Of a stretch of 55,324 nt of DNA, positions 2,540 to 28,401 are shown piece by piece; the stretch's first letter is position 1, and the number at the start of each line of letters is the position of its first letter. A program made the position numbers and the translations under genes. The stretch lies in NCBI GenBank assembly GCA_044448905.1, contig JBIOHJ010000002.1, positions 1 through 55,324 of the forward strand, read 5' to 3'. The stretch is from Bacteroidia bacterium (GTDB taxonomy: Bacteria; Bacteroidota; Bacteroidia; AKYH767-A; OLB10). The notes below the pieces were generated by a model. It saw only the letters and a list, made by a program, of their open reading frames with translations, was not told where the DNA came from and made no database searches.

Positions 2540-3928
2540 ATGAATTACGATGTTATTGTGATTGGCAGCGGACCGGGCGGATATGTTGCAGCAATTCGCG
2601 CATCACAACTTGGAATGAAAACAGCAATTGTTGAAAAGGCTGAGCTCGGTGGGGTCTGCCTTAACTGGGGATGCATACCTACAAAAGCGTTATTGAAGAG
2701 TGCACAGGTGTATGAATATTTGTTACACGCTCAGGATTACGGATTGAAAGCAAGCGGAGTGGACAAGGATTTTACAGCAATTGTAAAACGCTCTCGTGGA
2801 GCGGCAGATAAAATGAGCAAAGGAGTTCAATTCCTGATGAAGAAAAATAAAATTGATGTGATTACCGGAACCGGGAAAATAAAGCCAGGAAAAAAGGTTT
2901 CTGTAAACGGTACCGACAACAAGGAAACCATTTATGAAGCCAAACACATTATCCTTGCTACCGGAGCCCGCTCACGCGAATTGCCAAGCTTAAAACAAGA
3001 TGGAAAAAAAATTATCGGCTACCGCGAAGCGATGATTTTGGAAAAACAACCAGCCAGTATGGTTATAGTTGGCTCTGGTGCCATCGGAAGTGAATTTGCA
3101 TATTTTTATAATGCATTGGGAACAAAAGTTACTCTTGTTGAGTTTTTGCCAAACATTGTTCCGGTTGAAGACGAAGAAGTTTCAAAAGCTTTAGAACGGT
3201 CTTTCAAAAAGCAAGGCATTGCAGTAATGACTTCTTCGGAAGTATTAAGTGTTGATGCTTCAGGAGCAAATTGCAAAGTGAAAATTAAAACTCCGAAGGC
3301 AGAAGAAAATATTGAAGCTGAAATTGTATTGAGTGCAGTAGGAATTACAGCTAACCTTGAAAATATTGGGTTGGAGGAAACAGGAATCGCGACCGATAAA
3401 GGAAAAATTTTAGTGAATGATTTTTATCAAACGAACATGCCGGGTTATTATGCAATTGGTGATATTGTTCGGGGTCCTGCACTGGCACATGTCGCTTCTC
3501 ATGAAGCGATTACCTGCGTTGAAAAAATTGCAGGCTTGCATGTTGAGCCGATTGACTACAATAATATTCCCGGGTGTACCTATTGCCAACCTGAAATAGC
3601 TTCAGTAGGAATGACAGAAAAAGCCGCAAAAGAAAAAGGCATTGAAATAAAAGTAGGGAAATTTCCATTCAGTGCTTCGGGTAAAGCAAGTGCTGCAGGC
3701 AATAATGAGGGATTTGTAAAAGTAATTTTCGATGCAAAGTATGGTGAGTGGCTGGGCGCCCATATGATTGGCGCAAATGTAACTGAGATGATAGCCGAAG
3801 TGGTGGCTGCTCGTAAACTTGAAACTACAGGGCACGAAATAATTAAAACTATTCATCCTCATCCAACCATGAGCGAAGCAATTATGGAAGCTGTTGCCGA
3901 AGCATACGGTGAGGTTATTCATATTTAG
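2540..3928 (+). CDS. lpdA: dihydrolipoyl dehydrogenase
   Basis: 462 aa with FAD motif GSGPGGY, redox disulfide GGVCLNWGCIPTK and C-terminal HPHPTMSE. Confidence 0.95.
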   Translation: MNYDVIVIGSGPGGYVAAIRASQLGMKTAIVEKAELGGVCLNWGCIPTKALLKSAQVYEYLLHAQDYGLKASGVDKDFTAIVKRSRGAADKMSKGVQFLMKKNKIDVITGTGKIKPGKKVSVNGTDNKETIYEAKHIILATGARSRELPSLKQDGKKIIGYREAMILEKQPASMVIVGSGAIGSEFAYFYNALGTKVTLVEFLPNIVPVEDEEVSKALERSFKKQGIAVMTSSEVLSVDASGANCKVKIKTPKAEENIEAEIVLSAVGITANLENIGLEETGIATDKGKILVNDFYQTNMPGYYAIGDIVRGPALAHVASHEAITCVEKIAGLHVEPIDYNNIPGCTYCQPEIASVGMTEKAAKEKGIEIKVGKFPFSASGKASAAGNNEGFVKVIFDAKYGEWLGAHMIGANVTEMIAEVVAARKLETTGHEIIKTIHPHPTMSEAIMEAVAEAYGEVIHI

Positions 3929-3970
3929 TGTTTAGTTATGAGTGTTTAGTTATGAGTGTTTAGTTATGAG
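3929..3970. repeat. 14-bp tandem repeat x3 (TGTTTAGTTATGAG, i.e. two 7-mers)
   Basis: Three perfect copies start 1 nt after the lpdA stop TAG (3926-3928). This is the left arm of an inverted repeat with 4093-4115. Confidence 0.9.
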
Positions 3971-3979
3971 ATTTTCCAG

Positions 3980-4051
3980 ATGGATGAACATTTTCGCTTT
4001 GAAGAATTAAAGGTTTATCAAAAATCTTTGGAATTTATTGATCGAGGTTAA
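3980..4051 (+). pseudogene. relic (N-terminal 23 codons) of a four-helix-bundle / 23S rRNA intervening-sequence protein gene
   Basis: ATG 3980 translates to MDEHFRFEELKVYQKSLEFIDRG*. It matches the conserved N-terminus (F.eLkVwQKs.ef) of TIGR02436/PF05635 proteins, which normally have more than 110 aa. Confidence 0.55.
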
Positions 4052-4092
4052 ACCTCTGAACAATAAACTATAGTTATTTTTTTTAAATACTA

Positions 4093-4115
4093 CACACTCA
4101 CAACTAAACACTAAA
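4093..4115. repeat. right inverted arm of the lpdA/asnB junction hairpin
   Basis: The reverse complement tttagtgtttagttgtgagtgtg matches 3924-3946 (tttagtgtttagttatgagtgtt) at 21/23. It ends directly at ATG 4116. Confidence 0.85.
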
Positions 4116-6053
4116 ATGTGCGGAATTGTTGGTATAGTTTCAAAATCAGAAAAAGGAAATATTTTCCTTGATAAAATTTCCGTAGCAACTGATTGCCTTG
4201 CAAAACGAGGTCCTGATAACTCAGGAATTTTTAAGCATAACAACCTTGCGTTAGGCCATCGGAGGCTTTCTATTATAGATGTCTCGAGTGCAGGAGCACA
4301 GCCGATGAGTGACCCTTCGGGGAGGTTTACTATTATTTTTAATGGTGAATTTTTCAATTTCAGAGAACACCGAAGTTTTCTTTTATCAAAGGGTATTAAC
4401 TTAGTTTCGGAAAGCGATACTGAAGTTTTATTGCACCTTTTTATTCTGGAAAAAGAAAAATGTCTCGAAAGACTTAATGGGTTTTTTGCAATGGCTGTTT
4501 ATGATAAGCAGGAAGAGGTGTTATTTCTTGCCCGCGATCGTTTTGGAGTTAAGCCGTTATTAATTTATGAAGATGAAAATGCATTTATGTTTTCTTCTGA
4601 GATGAAAGCGCTGCTTGAGCTTGGAATTAAAAAAGAGCTGGATGAAGCTTCCCTCCTCTCCTACTTTCAGTTGAATTATATTCCACAGCCATATTCTATT
4701 TTTAAAAAAGTAAGAAAGCTCAAACCAGGCTCGTACCTGAAATTTTCAGCAAGACATAAAAAAATAATTGAAGAAAAGTTATTCTATCAAATTCCCTATT
4801 CTGAGAACATTTCAAATATTATTTCCTATGATGATGCAAAAGATAAATTGTATCAGTTAATGGATGCCGCTGTTCAGCGCAGACTGATAAGCGATGTGCC
4901 GCTGGGTTCATTTTTAAGCGGTGGAATTGATTCATCTGTAATTTCCGCTTTAGCAGCACAGCATACTACACACCTTAAAACATTTTCAATTGGTTTTCGT
5001 GATGAACCTATGTTTGATGAAACAAGATATGCGCAGCTGGTTGCAAAAAAGCATAACACAGAACACACTGTTTTCAGTTTAACAAATGATGATTTATTCG
5101 AAGTACTTCATGATGTACTTAATTATATTGACGAACCGTTTGCAGATTCCTCAGCGTTGAATGTTTTTATTTTAAGCAAACAGACACGTAAACATGTAAC
5201 GGTTGCTTTGAGCGGTGATGGCGCTGATGAATTGTTTGGAGGTTATAATAAACACCGTGCTGAATGGATGATTCGTAACGATGTATTTTTTACATCTTCA
5301 ATGAAAATTCTTTCACCTTTATTAAATTTTTTCTCCGGTTCGCGCAATTCAAAATATGGAAACAAGCTAAGACAAATTCACCGTTTCGCAGATGGAACAA
5401 AGTTTTCTTCTGCTGAAAGATATTGGAGATGGTGTGGGTTTGTTGATGAGCGTGCGGCTGAGTATATATTTTTAAACGCGGAGACGCAATGGCGTAAAGA
5501 ATACAAGGAAAGAAAAGATAAAGTAATAAAACACATTATCGGAAATAAGGATTTAAATGATGTACTGCTCGCTGATATGAATTTAGTCTTGCAGGGCGAC
5601 ATGTTAACCAAAGTTGATATGATGAGTATGGCCAACAGCCTGGAAGTTCGTACACCGTTTCTTGATTACGAGGTAGTAAATTTTGCATTTTCACTCCCCT
5701 CCTCTTATAAGATTGACAAAAGTGTTCAGAAAAAAATTGTAAAAGAAACATTCAGGCATTTACTGCCTGATGAAATATTTAATCGCAGCAAACAAGGATT
5801 TGAAGTTCCTTTATTAAAATGGTTTCGCACCGAATTAAAATCAATGATTACTGATGATTTACTGAATGATGATTTTATCCGCCAGCAAAATTTATTTAAT
5901 GTTGAAGAAATTAAAAAATTAAAACAGCAGCTCTTCTCCAATAACCCGGGTGAAATAAGTGCGCGCATTTGGGGACTGATTGTTTTTCAATACTGGTGGA
6001 AAAGGAATATGATTTATTCCGATAATTATCGGGATGAAAATGTGTTAATTTGA
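4116..6053 (+). CDS. asnB: asparagine synthase (glutamine-hydrolysing) family amidotransferase
   Basis: 645 aa with N-terminal MCGIVG (Ntn Cys2) and PP-loop SGGIDSS. It sits next to polysaccharide genes. Confidence 0.9.
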   Translation: MCGIVGIVSKSEKGNIFLDKISVATDCLAKRGPDNSGIFKHNNLALGHRRLSIIDVSSAGAQPMSDPSGRFTIIFNGEFFNFREHRSFLLSKGINLVSESDTEVLLHLFILEKEKCLERLNGFFAMAVYDKQEEVLFLARDRFGVKPLLIYEDENAFMFSSEMKALLELGIKKELDEASLLSYFQLNYIPQPYSIFKKVRKLKPGSYLKFSARHKKIIEEKLFYQIPYSENISNIISYDDAKDKLYQLMDAAVQRRLISDVPLGSFLSGGIDSSVISALAAQHTTHLKTFSIGFRDEPMFDETRYAQLVAKKHNTEHTVFSLTNDDLFEVLHDVLNYIDEPFADSSALNVFILSKQTRKHVTVALSGDGADELFGGYNKHRAEWMIRNDVFFTSSMKILSPLLNFFSGSRNSKYGNKLRQIHRFADGTKFSSAERYWRWCGFVDERAAEYIFLNAETQWRKEYKERKDKVIKHIIGNKDLNDVLLADMNLVLQGDMLTKVDMMSMANSLEVRTPFLDYEVVNFAFSLPSSYKIDKSVQKKIVKETFRHLLPDEIFNRSKQGFEVPLLKWFRTELKSMITDDLLNDDFIRQQNLFNVEEIKKLKQQLFSNNPGEISARIWGLIVFQYWWKRNMIYSDNYRDENVLI

Positions 6054-12324: not shown

Positions 12325-13251
12325 TTAGTTTTTTACAAACTTTTTTCTCACCCCGTTTATCTCAATAAAATATATTCCGCTTTTTAAGGATTGAATATTG
12401 ATTATTGAAGATTGAAAATTGATTGCGGATTTTAATATTTCTTTTCCCATCATATCATAAATTTTTATTTCTTTTTCCTGAACATTGAACATTGAACATT
12501 GAACTTTTAACTCCTCTCCTGCCGGGTTTGGTGAAATGGTAAATGTGGAAGTGTTATTTGATGTTTCGTTTATGCCGGTGCATAGTGTTAGGGAGACATC
12601 GTCAATATATATATAAGCTCCATGAAAAGCTTCAGAAGTATCTGTTATGACGCTTGTATTTGCATCATCTTTGAAATTTCCGATAATTAAATAATTTTCT
12701 CCTCCGGTGGCAGTGTAGTTACCGCTTATTAAAACCCAATTTATTGTATCTGATATGAATCCGGTAGTATTAATAAGCTGAGGGATATAGACTAAAAGCG
12801 AATCATTATTGATACCATCAATTAACGTATCGGAAAAATAAATACCTATATCATCAGTAATGCTTTGAACCTTATCGGGTGCATTAACATACATTTCAAA
12901 ATGATAACAGGCATTGGCAATTAATGGCGAAATAAAATTTGCTTCTATATATTCCCGGTAATTTGGGAATGCGCTGTCAGCAATAAGTACTATACCGCAA
13001 TAAGCGCCTCCACTATGCGCTTGCTGAGAACCTAATATGTTATCAGGAACACCTACAAATTGGCTACCACATTGATTATAATAATCTACTGAAGCTGCTG
13101 TTGGATTAATCCAAAATAATACAGAATCAAACTGATTCAAACTTGTCGGACATCCTATGTACCCCTCAAACCCCCCATTCGGCACTAAATTTTGCCCCCA
13201 TCCCACGAAAGTGGTTGAAAGTAAAAATAAGATGAATAAATATTTTTTCAT
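12325..13251 (-). CDS. T9SS type A sorting-domain protein (cargo of unknown function), paralog A
   Basis: 308 aa with signal MKKYLFILFLLSTTFVGWGQ, N-terminal NLVPNGGFE.Y.GCP motif, and C-terminal SPNPAGEEL...IKIYDMMGKE...SGIYFIEING CTD. Confidence 0.8.
   Translation of the reverse strand: MKKYLFILFLLSTTFVGWGQNLVPNGGFEGYIGCPTSLNQFDSVLFWINPTAASVDYYNQCGSQFVGVPDNILGSQQAHSGGAYCGIVLIADSAFPNYREYIEANFISPLIANACYHFEMYVNAPDKVQSITDDIGIYFSDTLIDGINNDSLLVYIPQLINTTGFISDTINWVLISGNYTATGGENYLIIGNFKDDANTSVITDTSEAFHGAYIYIDDVSLTLCTGINETSNNTSTFTISPNPAGEELKVQCSMFNVQEKEIKIYDMMGKEILKSAINFQSSIINIQSLKSGIYFIEINGVRKKFVKN
12390..12431. repeat. heptanucleotide array ATTGANN x6 inside CTD coding sequence
   Basis: attgaat|attgatt|attgaag|attgaaa|attgatt|gcggatt; encodes ..SAINFQSSIINIQSL.. 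on the minus strand. Confidence 0.8.
12479..12504. repeat. heptanucleotide array TGAACAT x3.5 inside CTD coding sequence
   Basis: tgaacat x3 then tgaact; encodes VQCSMFNVQ on the minus strand. Confidence 0.85.
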
Positions 13252-13265
13252 GCGTTATTGCCTGC

Positions 13266-14225
13266 CTACCGGCAGGTAGATTTTACAAACTTTTTACGCA
13301 CCCCGTTTATTTCAATAAAATATATTCCGCTGTTTAAAGATTGAATATTGATTATTGAAGATTGAAGATTGATTGCGGATTTTAAAACTTCTTTTCCCAT
13401 CATATCATAAATTTTTATTTCTTTTTCCTGAACATTGAACATTGAACATTGAACATTCAATTCTTCTCCTGCCGGGTTTGGTGAAATGGTAAATGAGGAA
13501 GTGTTATTTGATGTTTCGTTTATGCCGGTTGCGCAGGGGGTGAGGGAGACATCGTCAATGTATAAATATATTCTATTATCAGTTGAGGAGCTATTAACAA
13601 CTATTGTATCAGTATTCATGTCGTCTTTAAAATTTCCAATTATTAGAAAACTTTCTCCTCCCTGAGCAATATAATTTCCACCAACTAAAGTCCAATTTGA
13701 TGAGTCAGGATTATTTCCTGTTATATTGTTAAATTGTGGAGTAAAAGGTAACGGAAGATAATTATTTATCCCTGTAATTGCTGAAACAGAAAAATAGGCG
13801 CCTATTGCATCAGTTGTATATTTAAAAATATCCGCAAGGCTAACTTTCATTTCGAAATGATAACAATTATTAATAATTAAAGATGATATTAAAGGAACCT
13901 CGATATATTCACGATAATTGGCATCATCCGATGAGAAAAGATAAATTCCACAATATGCATTACCGCTTTGTGTTATTTGATAACCAAAAACATTTGAAGG
14001 AACTCCAGCAATTCCATTGCTATTGCAACTATTAAAATAATCTGGTGTACCCGAAATCAGATATATGTTCGTAGCCGGATTCATCCAGAATAAACAAGAA
14101 TCCAGTTGCGCTAAAGAAGGTGGGCATCCCGAATACTGCTCAAACCCCCCATTCGGCACCAAATTTTGCCCCCATCCCACCAAAGTGGTTGATAATAAAC
14201 ATAATAAAAGGGTGAATTTTCTCAT
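13266..14225 (-). CDS. T9SS type A sorting-domain protein, paralog B
   Basis: ATG at 14223-14225 gives MRKFTLLLCLLSTTLVGWGQ (the track start 14234 is a TTG). It has the same architecture as paralog A, and the last ~95 aa are nearly identical. Confidence 0.8.
   Translation of the reverse strand: MRKFTLLLCLLSTTLVGWGQNLVPNGGFEQYSGCPPSLAQLDSCLFWMNPATNIYLISGTPDYFNSCNSNGIAGVPSNVFGYQITQSGNAYCGIYLFSSDDANYREYIEVPLISSLIINNCYHFEMKVSLADIFKYTTDAIGAYFSVSAITGINNYLPLPFTPQFNNITGNNPDSSNWTLVGGNYIAQGGESFLIIGNFKDDMNTDTIVVNSSSTDNRIYLYIDDVSLTPCATGINETSNNTSSFTISPNPAGEELNVQCSMFNVQEKEIKIYDMMGKEVLKSAINLQSSIINIQSLNSGIYFIEINGVRKKFVKSTCR
13340..13381. repeat. heptanucleotide array ATTGANN x6 (copy in paralog B)
   Basis: attgaat|attgatt|attgaag|attgaag|attgatt|gcggatt. 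Confidence 0.8.
13429..13456. repeat. heptanucleotide array TGAACAT x4 (copy in paralog B)
   Basis: Four perfect tgaacat units. Confidence 0.85.
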
Positions 14226-14240
14226 CAAAGCCAATTTAAC

Positions 14241-14408
14241 TTCTGGAAAATCTCCGTTTTCTTCTGGAAAATCTCCGTTTTCTTCTGTAAAAACTCTGTT
14301 TTCTTCTGAAGAATTTCTGTTTTCTTCTGTAAAAACTCTGTTTTCTTCTGGAGAATCTATGTTTTCTTCTGTAGAATTCCTGTTTTCTTCTGTAAAGAAA
14401 CCCTTTTT
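14241..14408. repeat. 8 x 21-bp tandem array (conserved core GTTTTCTTCTG, variable 10 nt)
   Basis: Units: ttctggaaaatctccgttttc (x2), ttctgtaaaaactctgttttc, ttctgaagaatttctgttttc, ttctgtaaaaactctgttttc, ttctggagaatctatgttttc, ttctgtagaattcctgttttc, ttctgtaaagaaaccctttttt. The array fills the gap between the stop of 14418-15359 and the start of 13266-14225. Confidence 0.9.
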
Positions 14409-22905: not shown

Positions 22906-23379
22906 ATGAAATTATTTTACAAAATCATTGCTGCCGGTTTTGGAAGTGGCTTTTCACCCATTGCCCCCGGAACGGTTGGCAGTTTGGTTGGATGCTTCCT
23001 TGTTTTTCTCCTCAATTCATTTCTTCCATCTGAAAATTATTTTTTTCAATTGTGCATTGTGCATTGTGGATTGTGCATTCTATTTCTCATCATCGGAATT
23101 ATTTCAATAAACAATTTACAAAGTGAATGGGGTCACGATTCACCAAAGTTTACCGTTGATGAAATTGCCGGCATGTTAATTTCTGTTTTGTTCATTCCAT
23201 TTTCATGGCAAAATATTTTAATCGGGTTTGTGCTGTTCCGTTTCTTTGATATTTTAAAACCCTTTGGCATCCGGCAGCTCGAAAAAGTGCATGGCGGTTG
23301 GGGAGTGATGCTTGATGATGTTCTTGCGGGGATTTTTGCGAATATAATTCTGCAAATAAGTTTACGATTTATTTTTTAA
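22906..23379 (+). CDS. pgpA: phosphatidylglycerophosphatase A family (candidate PIP phosphatase)
   Basis: 157 aa with GSGFSPIAPGTVGS, VDEIAG, FRFFDILKP and MLDDVLAG motifs. Confidence 0.85.
   Translation: MKLFYKIIAAGFGSGFSPIAPGTVGSLVGCFLVFLLNSFLPSENYFFQLCIVHCGLCILFLIIGIISINNLQSEWGHDSPKFTVDEIAGMLISVLFIPFSWQNILIGFVLFRFFDILKPFGIRQLEKVHGGWGVMLDDVLAGIFANIILQISLRFIF
23050..23077. repeat. heptanucleotide array TTGTGCA x4 inside pgpA
   Basis: ttgtgca|ttgtgca|ttgtgga|ttgtgca; encodes QLCIVHCGLCI within a hydrophobic segment. Confidence 0.85.
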
Positions 23380-26976: not shown

Positions 26977-28401
26977 ATGAGAGTATCAAGTATCAGGTAT
27001 CAAGTATCAAGACTCACTAAGTTCTTGTTTACTAAAAAAATTTTTTTGTCTTGCTACTTGATACTTGCTACTAATGTCTCCATCTCCCAAAAACGTCCTG
27101 AACAACCCCGACAATTAACACGTATCCTCTTCCTCTTCGATGCTTCGCAAAGCATGTTGGCTCAGTGGCAAAGTAATTCGCGGTTTATAATTGCAAAAAA
27201 AATGCTTGGCGAAATGGTTGACAGTTTGCAGCAACTGGACAATCTTGAATTGGCTTTAAGAGTATATGGGCATCAAAAACCATTTCCTCCGCAGGATTGC
27301 GATGATACAAAGCTCGAAGTTCCTTTCGGAAGCTTAAACGGATTTGAAATCAAAAAACGGTTAAATGAAATAAAAGCCAGCGGTACCACTCCCATTGCAT
27401 TGTCATTGGAACAATGTGGAAAAGATTTTCCGGAAACACCTTCACGAAACATTATCATTTTAATTACCGATGGCATTGAAGAATGTAACGGTGATCCGTG
27501 TGCCGTTTCCTACCAGTTGCAAAAAAGAGGAATTGTTTTAAAACCTTTTGTGATTGGAGTAGGAGCAACAAAGGATTTCGCCAAAGCGTTTGAATGCGTG
27601 GGAAATTATTACGATGCTGCCGAAGAAAGTTCTTTCAAAGCAGTTTTTAATGTGGTGATTTCGCAAGCGCTCAATAATACAAGCATGCAGGTAAACCTGC
27701 TTGATGTTTATGGCAAGCCAACTGAAACAAATGTAGGAATGACTTTTTACGATGTGTTTTCAGGAGCCATCCGTTACAATTATATTCACACCATGAATGC
27801 AAAAGGCGTTCCCGATACCGTTAAAGTTGATCCGTTAAGCACATATAAAATTGTTGTGCATACGTTGCCTTCTGTCAGTAAAGACAGTGTGAAAGTTGTT
27901 CCCGGCAAGCATACCATTGTAGGCATTGACGCACCGCAGGGTGATTTACTGTTGAAGCTCGAAGGGTCGAGCGATTACAGGAACCTGCAGGCAATTGTCC
28001 GCAAGCATAATGAAATGCCAACGCTTAATGTGCAATCCTTCAACATCAAAGAAAGATATTTAATTGGCAAATACGATTTGGAAATACTTACGCTTCCGCG
28101 AATGTATATTGGCAATGTTGACATCTCGCAAAGCAAAACAACAACTGTAGAAATTCCCAAACCCGGCATTGCGACTCTCATTGCAAACAATCCAGGCTAC
28201 GGAGGAATTTATGTGGAAGAAGACAATAAGCTGAAATGGATTTACAGCATGGATGAAAATTTATCGCGCGAAAGCGTGGTGCTGCAACCGGGAAAATATC
28301 ATGCTGTTTTCCGCCCCAAAAATTCGAGAGAAAGCATTTATACTGTGGATAAAATATTTCGTATAGCCAGCGGAGCCTCTATTTCAGTGAACCTTTATTA
28401 A
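26977..28401 (+). CDS. von Willebrand factor A domain protein
   Basis: ATG 26977 lies 1 nt after the tktN stop. An alternative in-frame TTG at 27025 would give MFTKKIFLSCYLILATNVSISQ. MIDAS-like LFLFDASQSM precedes a VWA fold segment (..ITDGIEECNGDP). Confidence 0.75.
   Translation: MRVSSIRYQVSRLTKFLFTKKIFLSCYLILATNVSISQKRPEQPRQLTRILFLFDASQSMLAQWQSNSRFIIAKKMLGEMVDSLQQLDNLELALRVYGHQKPFPPQDCDDTKLEVPFGSLNGFEIKKRLNEIKASGTTPIALSLEQCGKDFPETPSRNIIILITDGIEECNGDPCAVSYQLQKRGIVLKPFVIGVGATKDFAKAFECVGNYYDAAEESSFKAVFNVVISQALNNTSMQVNLLDVYGKPTETNVGMTFYDVFSGAIRYNYIHTMNAKGVPDTVKVDPLSTYKIVVHTLPSVSKDSVKVVPGKHTIVGIDAPQGDLLLKLEGSSDYRNLQAIVRKHNEMPTLNVQSFNIKERYLIGKYDLEILTLPRMYIGNVDISQSKTTTVEIPKPGIATLIANNPGYGGIYVEEDNKLKWIYSMDENLSRESVVLQPGKYHAVFRPKNSRESIYTVDKIFRIASGASISVNLY
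26982..27072. repeat. heptamer-built hairpin (AGTATCA x5 arm, inverted AGTAGCA/AGTATCA arm)
   Basis: 26989-27013 matches the reverse complement of 27048-27072 at 22/25. The loop is 27014-27047. Confidence 0.8.

Follow-up and report, generated by a model that had tools for sequence, protein, structure and literature searches.

The window analysed here is a stretch of 55,324 nucleotides from a Bacteroidia bacterium (contig JBIOHJ010000002.1 of assembly GCA_044448905.1), known from a metagenome-assembled genome (MAG) of 3.19 Mb, 225 contigs and 89% completeness that is labelled G000 below. Within this window, the genes lpdA and asnB are separated by a spacer of 187 bases which very probably represents the decayed remains of a cassette, made up of a four-helix-bundle (4HB) gene of the PF05635 family, the '23S rRNA intervening sequence (IVS) protein' family, placed between inverted arrays of seven-nucleotide units (heptamers). 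The original cassette would have been complete and would since have lost about 290 bp from within its gene, with arms that remain 25/27 complementary. The element is regarded as a passenger in decay rather than as an evolved regulator, and the relic's own function is probably nil or incidental.

The spacer is arranged as two arms enclosing what is left of the gene, all on the forward strand. The left arm (3924 to 3970), located by tandem and other repeat searches, opens with TTTAG and continues with the 14-mer TGTTTAGTTATGAG in three perfect copies, each composed of two heptamers, TGTTTAG and TTATGAG. It is followed by a 9-nt leader, ATTTTCCAG (3971 to 3979), and by an open reading frame (ORF) of 23 codons at 3980 to 4051 with the translation MDEHFRFEELKVYQKSLEFIDRG and a stop. 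The 5' remnant of the PF05635 gene, as delimited by custom profiles and nucleotide identity, occupies 3980 to 4045 and comprises codons 1 to 21 (MDEHFRFEELKVYQKSLEFID) and a junction codon, and a probable 3' remnant, with the last eight or so codons, a stop and a 3' untranslated stretch, lies at 4046 to 4079. The right arm (4089 to 4115), found by an inverted-repeat search and by RNA folding, is reverse-complementary to the left arm, the paired segments 3924 to 3950 and 4089 to 4115 being 27 nt long with 25/27 (93%) complementary positions. An earlier sequence-only reading of this DNA had placed the lpdA stop and the bases preceding asnB in a 23-nt inverted repeat with 21/23 matches and had seen further copies of the 14-mer between its arms; that repeat is contained in the 27-nt arms, and Tandem Repeats Finder (TRF) reports 3.1 perfect copies of period 14 at 3927 to 3970 (100% matches). 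The remaining 14-mer copies offer two alternative pairing registers, detected through a direct-repeat family and inverted-pair search, since the left array exceeds the right one in length. The arms score 0.70 for period 7 and 0.85 for period 14. Both arms touch the coding sequences of the neighbouring genes: the TAG stop of lpdA (3926 to 3928) falls inside the left arm's first repeat unit, the arm overlapping it by 5 nt, and the ATG of asnB (4116) follows the last base of the right arm (4115) at a distance of 0 nt.

The assignment of the 5' remnant to a PF05635 4HB gene is firmly supported by custom profiles and by nucleotide identity, on which it is based. A subfamily profile was built from 119 sequences homologous to one of the intact genes of G000 and run against all stop-to-stop ORFs of at least 20 aa in the six frames of this genome (n = 91,778), where the relic ORF ranked sixth (23.7 bits, E = 2e-4), with DEHFRFEELKVYQKSLEFID aligned to profile positions 3 to 22 (consensus eekfkfeelkvyqksldfvd). 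With a broader profile, which combined the intact genes of G000 and its relatives with a spread of homologues, the seven intact genes of the genome took ranks 1 to 7 and the relic came eighth (E = 0.0019), the next ORF having an E-value of 3.7. In short-query BLASTP the peptide finds its matches solely at the very N-terminal ends of homologues, where 17-20 residues align with 65-88% identity, and at the nucleotide level 3998 to 4050 is identical at 44/53 positions (83%) to the intact cassette L038, found on a metagenome contig. This bears out the sequence-only reading in so far as it had taken ORF 3980 to 4051 for the N-terminus of a 4HB protein (PF05635/TIGR02436), an assignment on which the curated models are silent.

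Homology to the family ends after codon 21. A full four-helix domain of about 110-130 aa carrying the GxxRxxxSxxxNxxE motif (Zhang and Ye, 2013; PMC3936711) is absent from the locus, where 21-23 codons are left and the motif region is deleted. Downstream, 4046 to 4079 can be aligned with the intact gene on contig C88, across its final eight codons, its stop and its 3' flank (GGTTTAATCAAATCAATAAACTGATTATTATTT; score 15). This segment is probably the 3' end of the relic's own gene, thrown out of frame through the loss of one nucleotide, and the simplest reading of the sequence would be that the same loss created the TAA at 4049 to 4051. Since the last eight or so codons appear to be kept, the missing part would correspond to an internal deletion of about 290 bp. 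Judged by its sequence, the relic is a dead gene fragment and not a functional member of the family. The remnant is close to the family consensus and the three 14-mer copies are perfect, which suggests that both the deletion and an expansion of the left array by slippage are recent.

The relic is set in the same way as the intact members of its family in G000. When this genome is scanned for PF05635, only seven intact genes are listed, the relic not being among them, and all seven are situated between inverted heptamer arrays. Three elements make up an intact cassette: heptamers arrayed upstream, a gene about 120 codons long, and a second array downstream, reverse-complementary to the upstream one. 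The whole would close into a long stem with its base at the upstream stop and the downstream start. The heptamer differs from one intact cassette to another (GGCAATG; CAGTAAT; CAGTAGT/CAGTGGG; GTCAAAA; TTGAAGA; TTTCAAT; TAATTTC). The sequence-only reading had asked whether intact genes of this family are flanked by inverted heptamer arms abutting neighbouring stop and start codons; besides the arms found at 7/7 genes, both arms lie at most 16 nt from the neighbouring stop or start in 6/8 cassettes when the relic is counted with the intact ones. The insertion sites include nuoF-nuoG, paaA-paaB and the gap before accD, all of them in housekeeping operons.

A survey of 60 genomes from the family and order of G000 has extended this picture. 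PF05635 was found in 51 of them, with between 0 and 14 copies per genome. A flanking inverted repeat with a score of at least 14 was present at 18 of 36 such loci in relatives, and 17 of these 18 repeats were heptamer-periodic; none of the 144 shifted control positions in those loci reached that score. Among copies with stops or truncations, 9/16 retain their arms, which indicates that the arms often outlive the gene, and decayed copies of this kind are common in relatives, complete genomes included. At the nuoF-nuoG junction, G000 carries a 4HB cassette with GTCAAAA arms (C49:9486-9944) and a genome of another family, G048, carries one with AAGTATG/AAGTAAT arms (L232; C28:5370-6100), the two proteins being about 40% identical. 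In most relatives the gap between nuoF and nuoG measures 0-20 nt, and in one (G004) a 4HB gene occurs after nuoG. This pattern fits recurrent insertion, the alternative being an ancient insertion followed by many losses. At one further locus, on a metagenome contig from the JGI (L039, 1870-1935), the 4HB ORF reads through its right arm, made of CTACCCT units, and yields a protein of 144 aa with an arm-encoded tail. Full-text literature searches returned no paper describing heptamer-armed 4HB cassettes at mRNA junctions.

The junction itself has been compared across relatives. The upstream gene, lpdA (2540 to 3928, forward strand), appears in the ORF list and encodes a dihydrolipoyl dehydrogenase of 462 aa (Pfam Pyr_redox_2, E = 7e-70; Pyr_redox_dim, E = 1e-38), and the downstream gene (4116 to 6053, forward strand) encodes an asnB-type asparagine synthase of 645 aa (Pfam Asn_synthase, E = 1e-92; GATase_7) and opens a cluster rich in glycosyltransferases. 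In at least 12 related genomes asnB lies directly 3' of lpdA. Counted from the lpdA stop, the spacers of G057 and G022 measure 6 and 8 nt, respectively, and those of eight others range over 36-142 nt. The sequence-only reading had treated the spacer as an insert, and the spacer's lack of conservation, at 6-8 nt in two genomes and with a different length and content in the rest, agrees with this; given that the spacer differs across relatives, the insert is lineage-specific. No 4HB relic was found in the lpdA-asnB spacers of ten relatives, and no 4HB gene adjoined lpdA at any of 160 more distant loci (80 from genomes and 80 from metagenomes), among which the best matches reached about 84% protein identity. 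In G042 and G056, what makes the lpdA-asnB gap longer is an unrelated gene on the opposite strand (one mscL-like, the other for a secreted protein).

The nearest genome, G033, belongs to a different genus and shows 81-84% nucleotide identity in the flanks. Its spacer holds a gene-less hairpin made of other heptamers (AAGTTTA/AGGTTT) with a loop of about 80 nt, and in its congener G017 two heptamers are present, confined to the left side. Homology between the loops of G033 and G000 was considered and rejected, the similarity not being significant (p = 0.26-0.41); whole spacers including the arms gave p = 0.003 against mononucleotide shuffles, a value regarded as a composition effect. The G033 and G017 hairpins may be further-decayed descendants of the insertion that produced the relic or independent events.

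These hairpins belong to a wider population of heptamer repeats. G000 contains 117 tandem arrays of period 7 and 53 of period 14, as against 1-8 for each of the periods 5, 6 and 8-13, and units of the AAACTGT and TAAACTG type are common in it. Its 46 heptamer-periodic inverted-repeat clusters include a clear group with loops of about 380-480 nt, which are the seven intact cassettes, and about 25 clusters with loops of 1-125 nt. The subfamily and broad profiles detected no 4HB relic in the other 16 short-loop heptamer hairpins of this genome, and the relic locus is the sole hairpin in G000 with a recognisable gene fragment. From this material an explanation can be constructed in which the hairpin came first: heptamer hairpins would be junction elements of the host, acting as terminators, insulators or mRNA stabilisers, and a 4HB gene or a fragment of one would have entered the apical loop later, the arms at 3924 to 4115 then not having come in with the gene as a single unit. 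The roughly 25 short-loop hairpins that lack a recognisable relic speak for such an order of events, as do the different, gene-less hairpin of G033 and the two left-side heptamers of G017 at the very same junction, the presence of some arrays inside the coding sequence of type IX secretion system (T9SS) C-terminal domains (CTDs) and the terminator-like character of one array, on contig C54. Nonetheless, it is considered unlikely. All intact 4HB genes of the genome are armed and shifted control positions never are, the closest metagenomic homologues of the relic bear arms of a related AGTT-type unit, and repeated exact landing in loops would demand a targeting at least as special as that required by a unitary cassette.

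With the spacer read as a decayed cassette whose gene is dead and whose stem is the part still able to act, a proposal can be made as to how such an insert is borne by its operon. The RNA of 3915 to 4125 (211 nt) has a predicted folding energy of -57.3 kcal/mol, compared with -34.5 +/- 3.5 kcal/mol for dinucleotide shuffles (z = -6.6, with 0/200 shuffles as good), a value well outside what chance would give. In the predicted outer stem the right arm pairs with 3920 to 3950, covering both the lpdA UAG and the asnB AUG, the latter being paired with the CAU of the penultimate lpdA codon. No Rfam family was found in 3700 to 4400, and the spacer contains neither a sigma-70-like promoter, by promoter scan, nor the Bacteroidetes -7 motif TAnnTTTG. 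No intrinsic terminator, in the form of a GC-rich stem with a U-run, is present at the arms, where the stem is followed by AUGUGCGG. The two genes are presumably co-transcribed, which is supported by the spacers of only 6-8 nt in relatives. A stem of 27-33 bp would then form in the transcript, shutting off the insert and juxtaposing the lpdA UAG and the asnB AUG, and this juxtaposition would allow the insert to be tolerated within the operon. A ribosome terminating at the in-stem UAG would open the stem at its base and make the asnB AUG accessible, thereby coupling the translation of asnB to that of lpdA. Alternatively, RNase III may cut the stem, which is long enough to serve as a substrate, by analogy with the IVSs of 23S rRNA; an rnc homologue is present in G000. 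It may also be argued, from design, that such arms would terminate any upstream reading frame, as a heptamer that bears a stop triplet, once present in three copies, offers that stop in each of the three frames, seven not being divisible by three.

Several points weigh against the interpretation of the spacer as a decayed cassette. Neither the 23-aa nor a 31-aa reading of the relic has a match in Pfam-A or NCBIfam at E <= 10, which is attributed to the shortness of the peptide. The alignment of the putative 3' remnant is marginally significant (p = 0.0085 against C88, or 0.019 when the best of three targets is taken). No intact parent copy occurs at the lpdA-asnB junction in any relative examined, the nearest of which belongs to a different genus. 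What is said of co-transcription, of the stem in the transcript, of coupling and of RNase III cleavage is inferred. Mismatches in the arms of 24 cassettes, read on the sense strand, comprise 13 G-U and 12 A-C pairs, that is, no G-U excess and therefore no specific signature of selection on an RNA stem; it is possible that arm complementarity is maintained or generated at the DNA level. As regards movement, no target-site duplication is seen at the flanks (...TTCATA | ATGTGC...) and no mobility enzyme or cognate transposase has been identified for the putatively mobile cassette.

The deletion of about 290 bp is, moreover, known from the MAG assembly. Taking into account that this assembly is incomplete and fragmented and that heptamer arrays are difficult to assemble, the deletion or the whole spacer could be a mis-assembly, the true genome having an intact cassette or none at this position. 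This explanation has very little probability, considering that the end-points of the deletion fall in unique coding sequence outside the repeats, that both flanking genes, lpdA and asnB, are undamaged and keep their synteny with 12 relatives, and that arm-retaining decayed copies are frequent in relatives, where they occur in complete genomes too. Least credible of all is a chance resemblance, in which local heptamer slippage made the hairpin and a short ORF in an AT-rich region, passed over by the curated models, merely looks like a 4HB N-terminus, given six-frame ranks of sixth and eighth with a clear gap to the noise (E = 2e-4 and 0.002), alignments that always start from the Met region of homologues, the 83% identity across 53 nt and a position in the loop of the very arm type that encloses all intact family members.

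ORF-bearing intervening sequences of 23S rRNA, reportedly treated by Ralph and McClelland in 1993 and occurring also in Leptospira and in the Xanthomonas/Brucella type, are the closest published analogue of the relic locus. The two have in common a PF05635 family member in the loop, a closing stem, heptamers near the ORF and decay of the ORF with the stem kept. In Coxiella, the 23S IVS has a 28-bp terminal stem with tandem GACAGAT heptamers before the S23p ORF; the number of heptamers varies among strains, one of which has a 176-bp deletion internal to the ORF, and RNase III cuts the IVS out (Warrier et al., 2016; PMC4990558). The relic locus differs in lying between two protein genes in an mRNA and not in helix 25 or 45 of 23S rRNA, and in having arms that are built entirely from heptamer or 14-mer units and take in the neighbouring stop and the bases before the start. 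RNase III excision has been shown for the IVS and is proposed for the relic locus by analogy.

Other systems share part of these features. Comparable heptamer repeats are known in Cyanobacteria as short tandemly repeated repetitive (STRR) sequences. The G000 arrays resemble those of the heptamer TAACTGA in their strong, lineage-specific excess of 7-nt tandem repeats, in their position a few nucleotides from start codons and in having related units (AAACTGT, TAAACTG). The TAACTGA repeats have been described as direct repeats near start codons in Beggiatoaceae, Cyanobacteria and some Bacteroidetes, with inverted partners in 1 of 170 sets and no linked gene family (MacGregor, 2015; PMC4679880); G000, in contrast, has inverted array pairs that enclose a gene or a relic. 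Genes annotated as 23S_rRNA_IVP have also been reported inside cas operons, for example between cmr3 and cmr2, where they were read as functional nuclease partners and where no arms or heptamers were reported (Zhang and Ye, 2013; PMC3936711). The relic locus likewise has a PF05635 gene wedged between genes that are presumably co-transcribed, with the difference that the operons concerned are unrelated housekeeping ones and the gene is dead. A resemblance to miniature inverted-repeat transposable elements (MITEs) can be seen in the shortness of the insert, its inverted-repeat bounds and its presence or absence at a conserved junction; unlike MITEs, it shows no target-site duplication, each of the eight cassettes has its own heptamer with no common termini, and no transposase has been identified.

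IVSs bearing 4HB genes have been known in 23S rRNA for 30 years, with their origin and mobility unexplained. The relic locus would represent the architecture of an IVS at an ordinary mRNA junction, with the gene gone and the arms intact, and as such it ties together IVS-type 4HB genes, their presence in operons and the excess of heptamers at gene boundaries, which were discussed separately in the papers found. It also offers an idea of how an insert of 200-500 nt may be tolerated between tightly linked genes without polar damage, through the juxtaposition of stop and start. Being a dead remnant, the locus is probably of small direct physiological importance, and its value lies in the intermediate state that it displays and in providing a simple test bed for the action of the stem. 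The relic would stand, as an intermediate state of a rare kind, between cassettes that carry a gene and the numerous empty heptamer hairpins of G000. That those empty hairpins descend from cassettes is a suggestion, which draws on this one clear intermediate and on the tendency of arms to outlast genes. A wider proposal, advanced here tentatively and more doubtful than not, is that armed 4HB cassettes arrive at operon junctions as units, that an internal deletion then removes the gene while the arms stay, and that such arms gave rise to an excess, genome-wide and long unexplained, of heptamer hairpins and 7-nt tandem repeats at the gene borders of Bacteroidota, an origin that would extend to those of Cyanobacteria and Beggiatoaceae; the stems would subsequently have been co-opted as operon insulators, coupling devices or terminators.

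Additional heptamer repeats have been observed in this genome. Gene-less hairpins of the unit AGTTCGG occur at C112:5661-5742, C92:11332-11427, C200:612-749 and C3:39867-39919, the one on C200 being a mixture of AGTTATG, AGTTTTT and AGTTCGG units. AGTTCGG is also the arm unit of the metagenomic cassettes L038 and L040, the proteins of which (P0007 and P0008) are the closest to the relic peptide. A unit of the relic's own type, TTTAGTG, is repeated three to four times at C54:1634-1713, in a hairpin with a 33-nt loop. This hairpin lies 24 nt past the stop codon of a gene for a T9SS-type protein, and a T-run comes after it, in the manner of an intrinsic terminator. Heptamer inverted repeats are also found within T9SS CTD coding sequences, at C85:13666-13782, C112:4049-4163, C92:11332-11427 and C91:6391-6496 and, in the window, at 12390 to 12504 and 13340 to 13457. 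Their units are of the AGTTTAC/AAACTGY type or AGTTCGG, and they are located between a PNPAKE-like motif and the ...IDVS..NG... strand, a position within the domain which implies that both arms are translated. Elsewhere in the window, an AGTATCA hairpin at 26982 to 27072, with a loop of about 34-45 nt that holds no 4HB relic, bridges the gap between a stop and the following start. TRF further reports a 21-nt unit, CTTCTGTAAAATCTCTGTTTT (21 being 3 x 7), in 7.5 copies with 85% identity at 14240 to 14396, and the heptamer ATTGTGC in 4.4 copies at 23049 to 23079.

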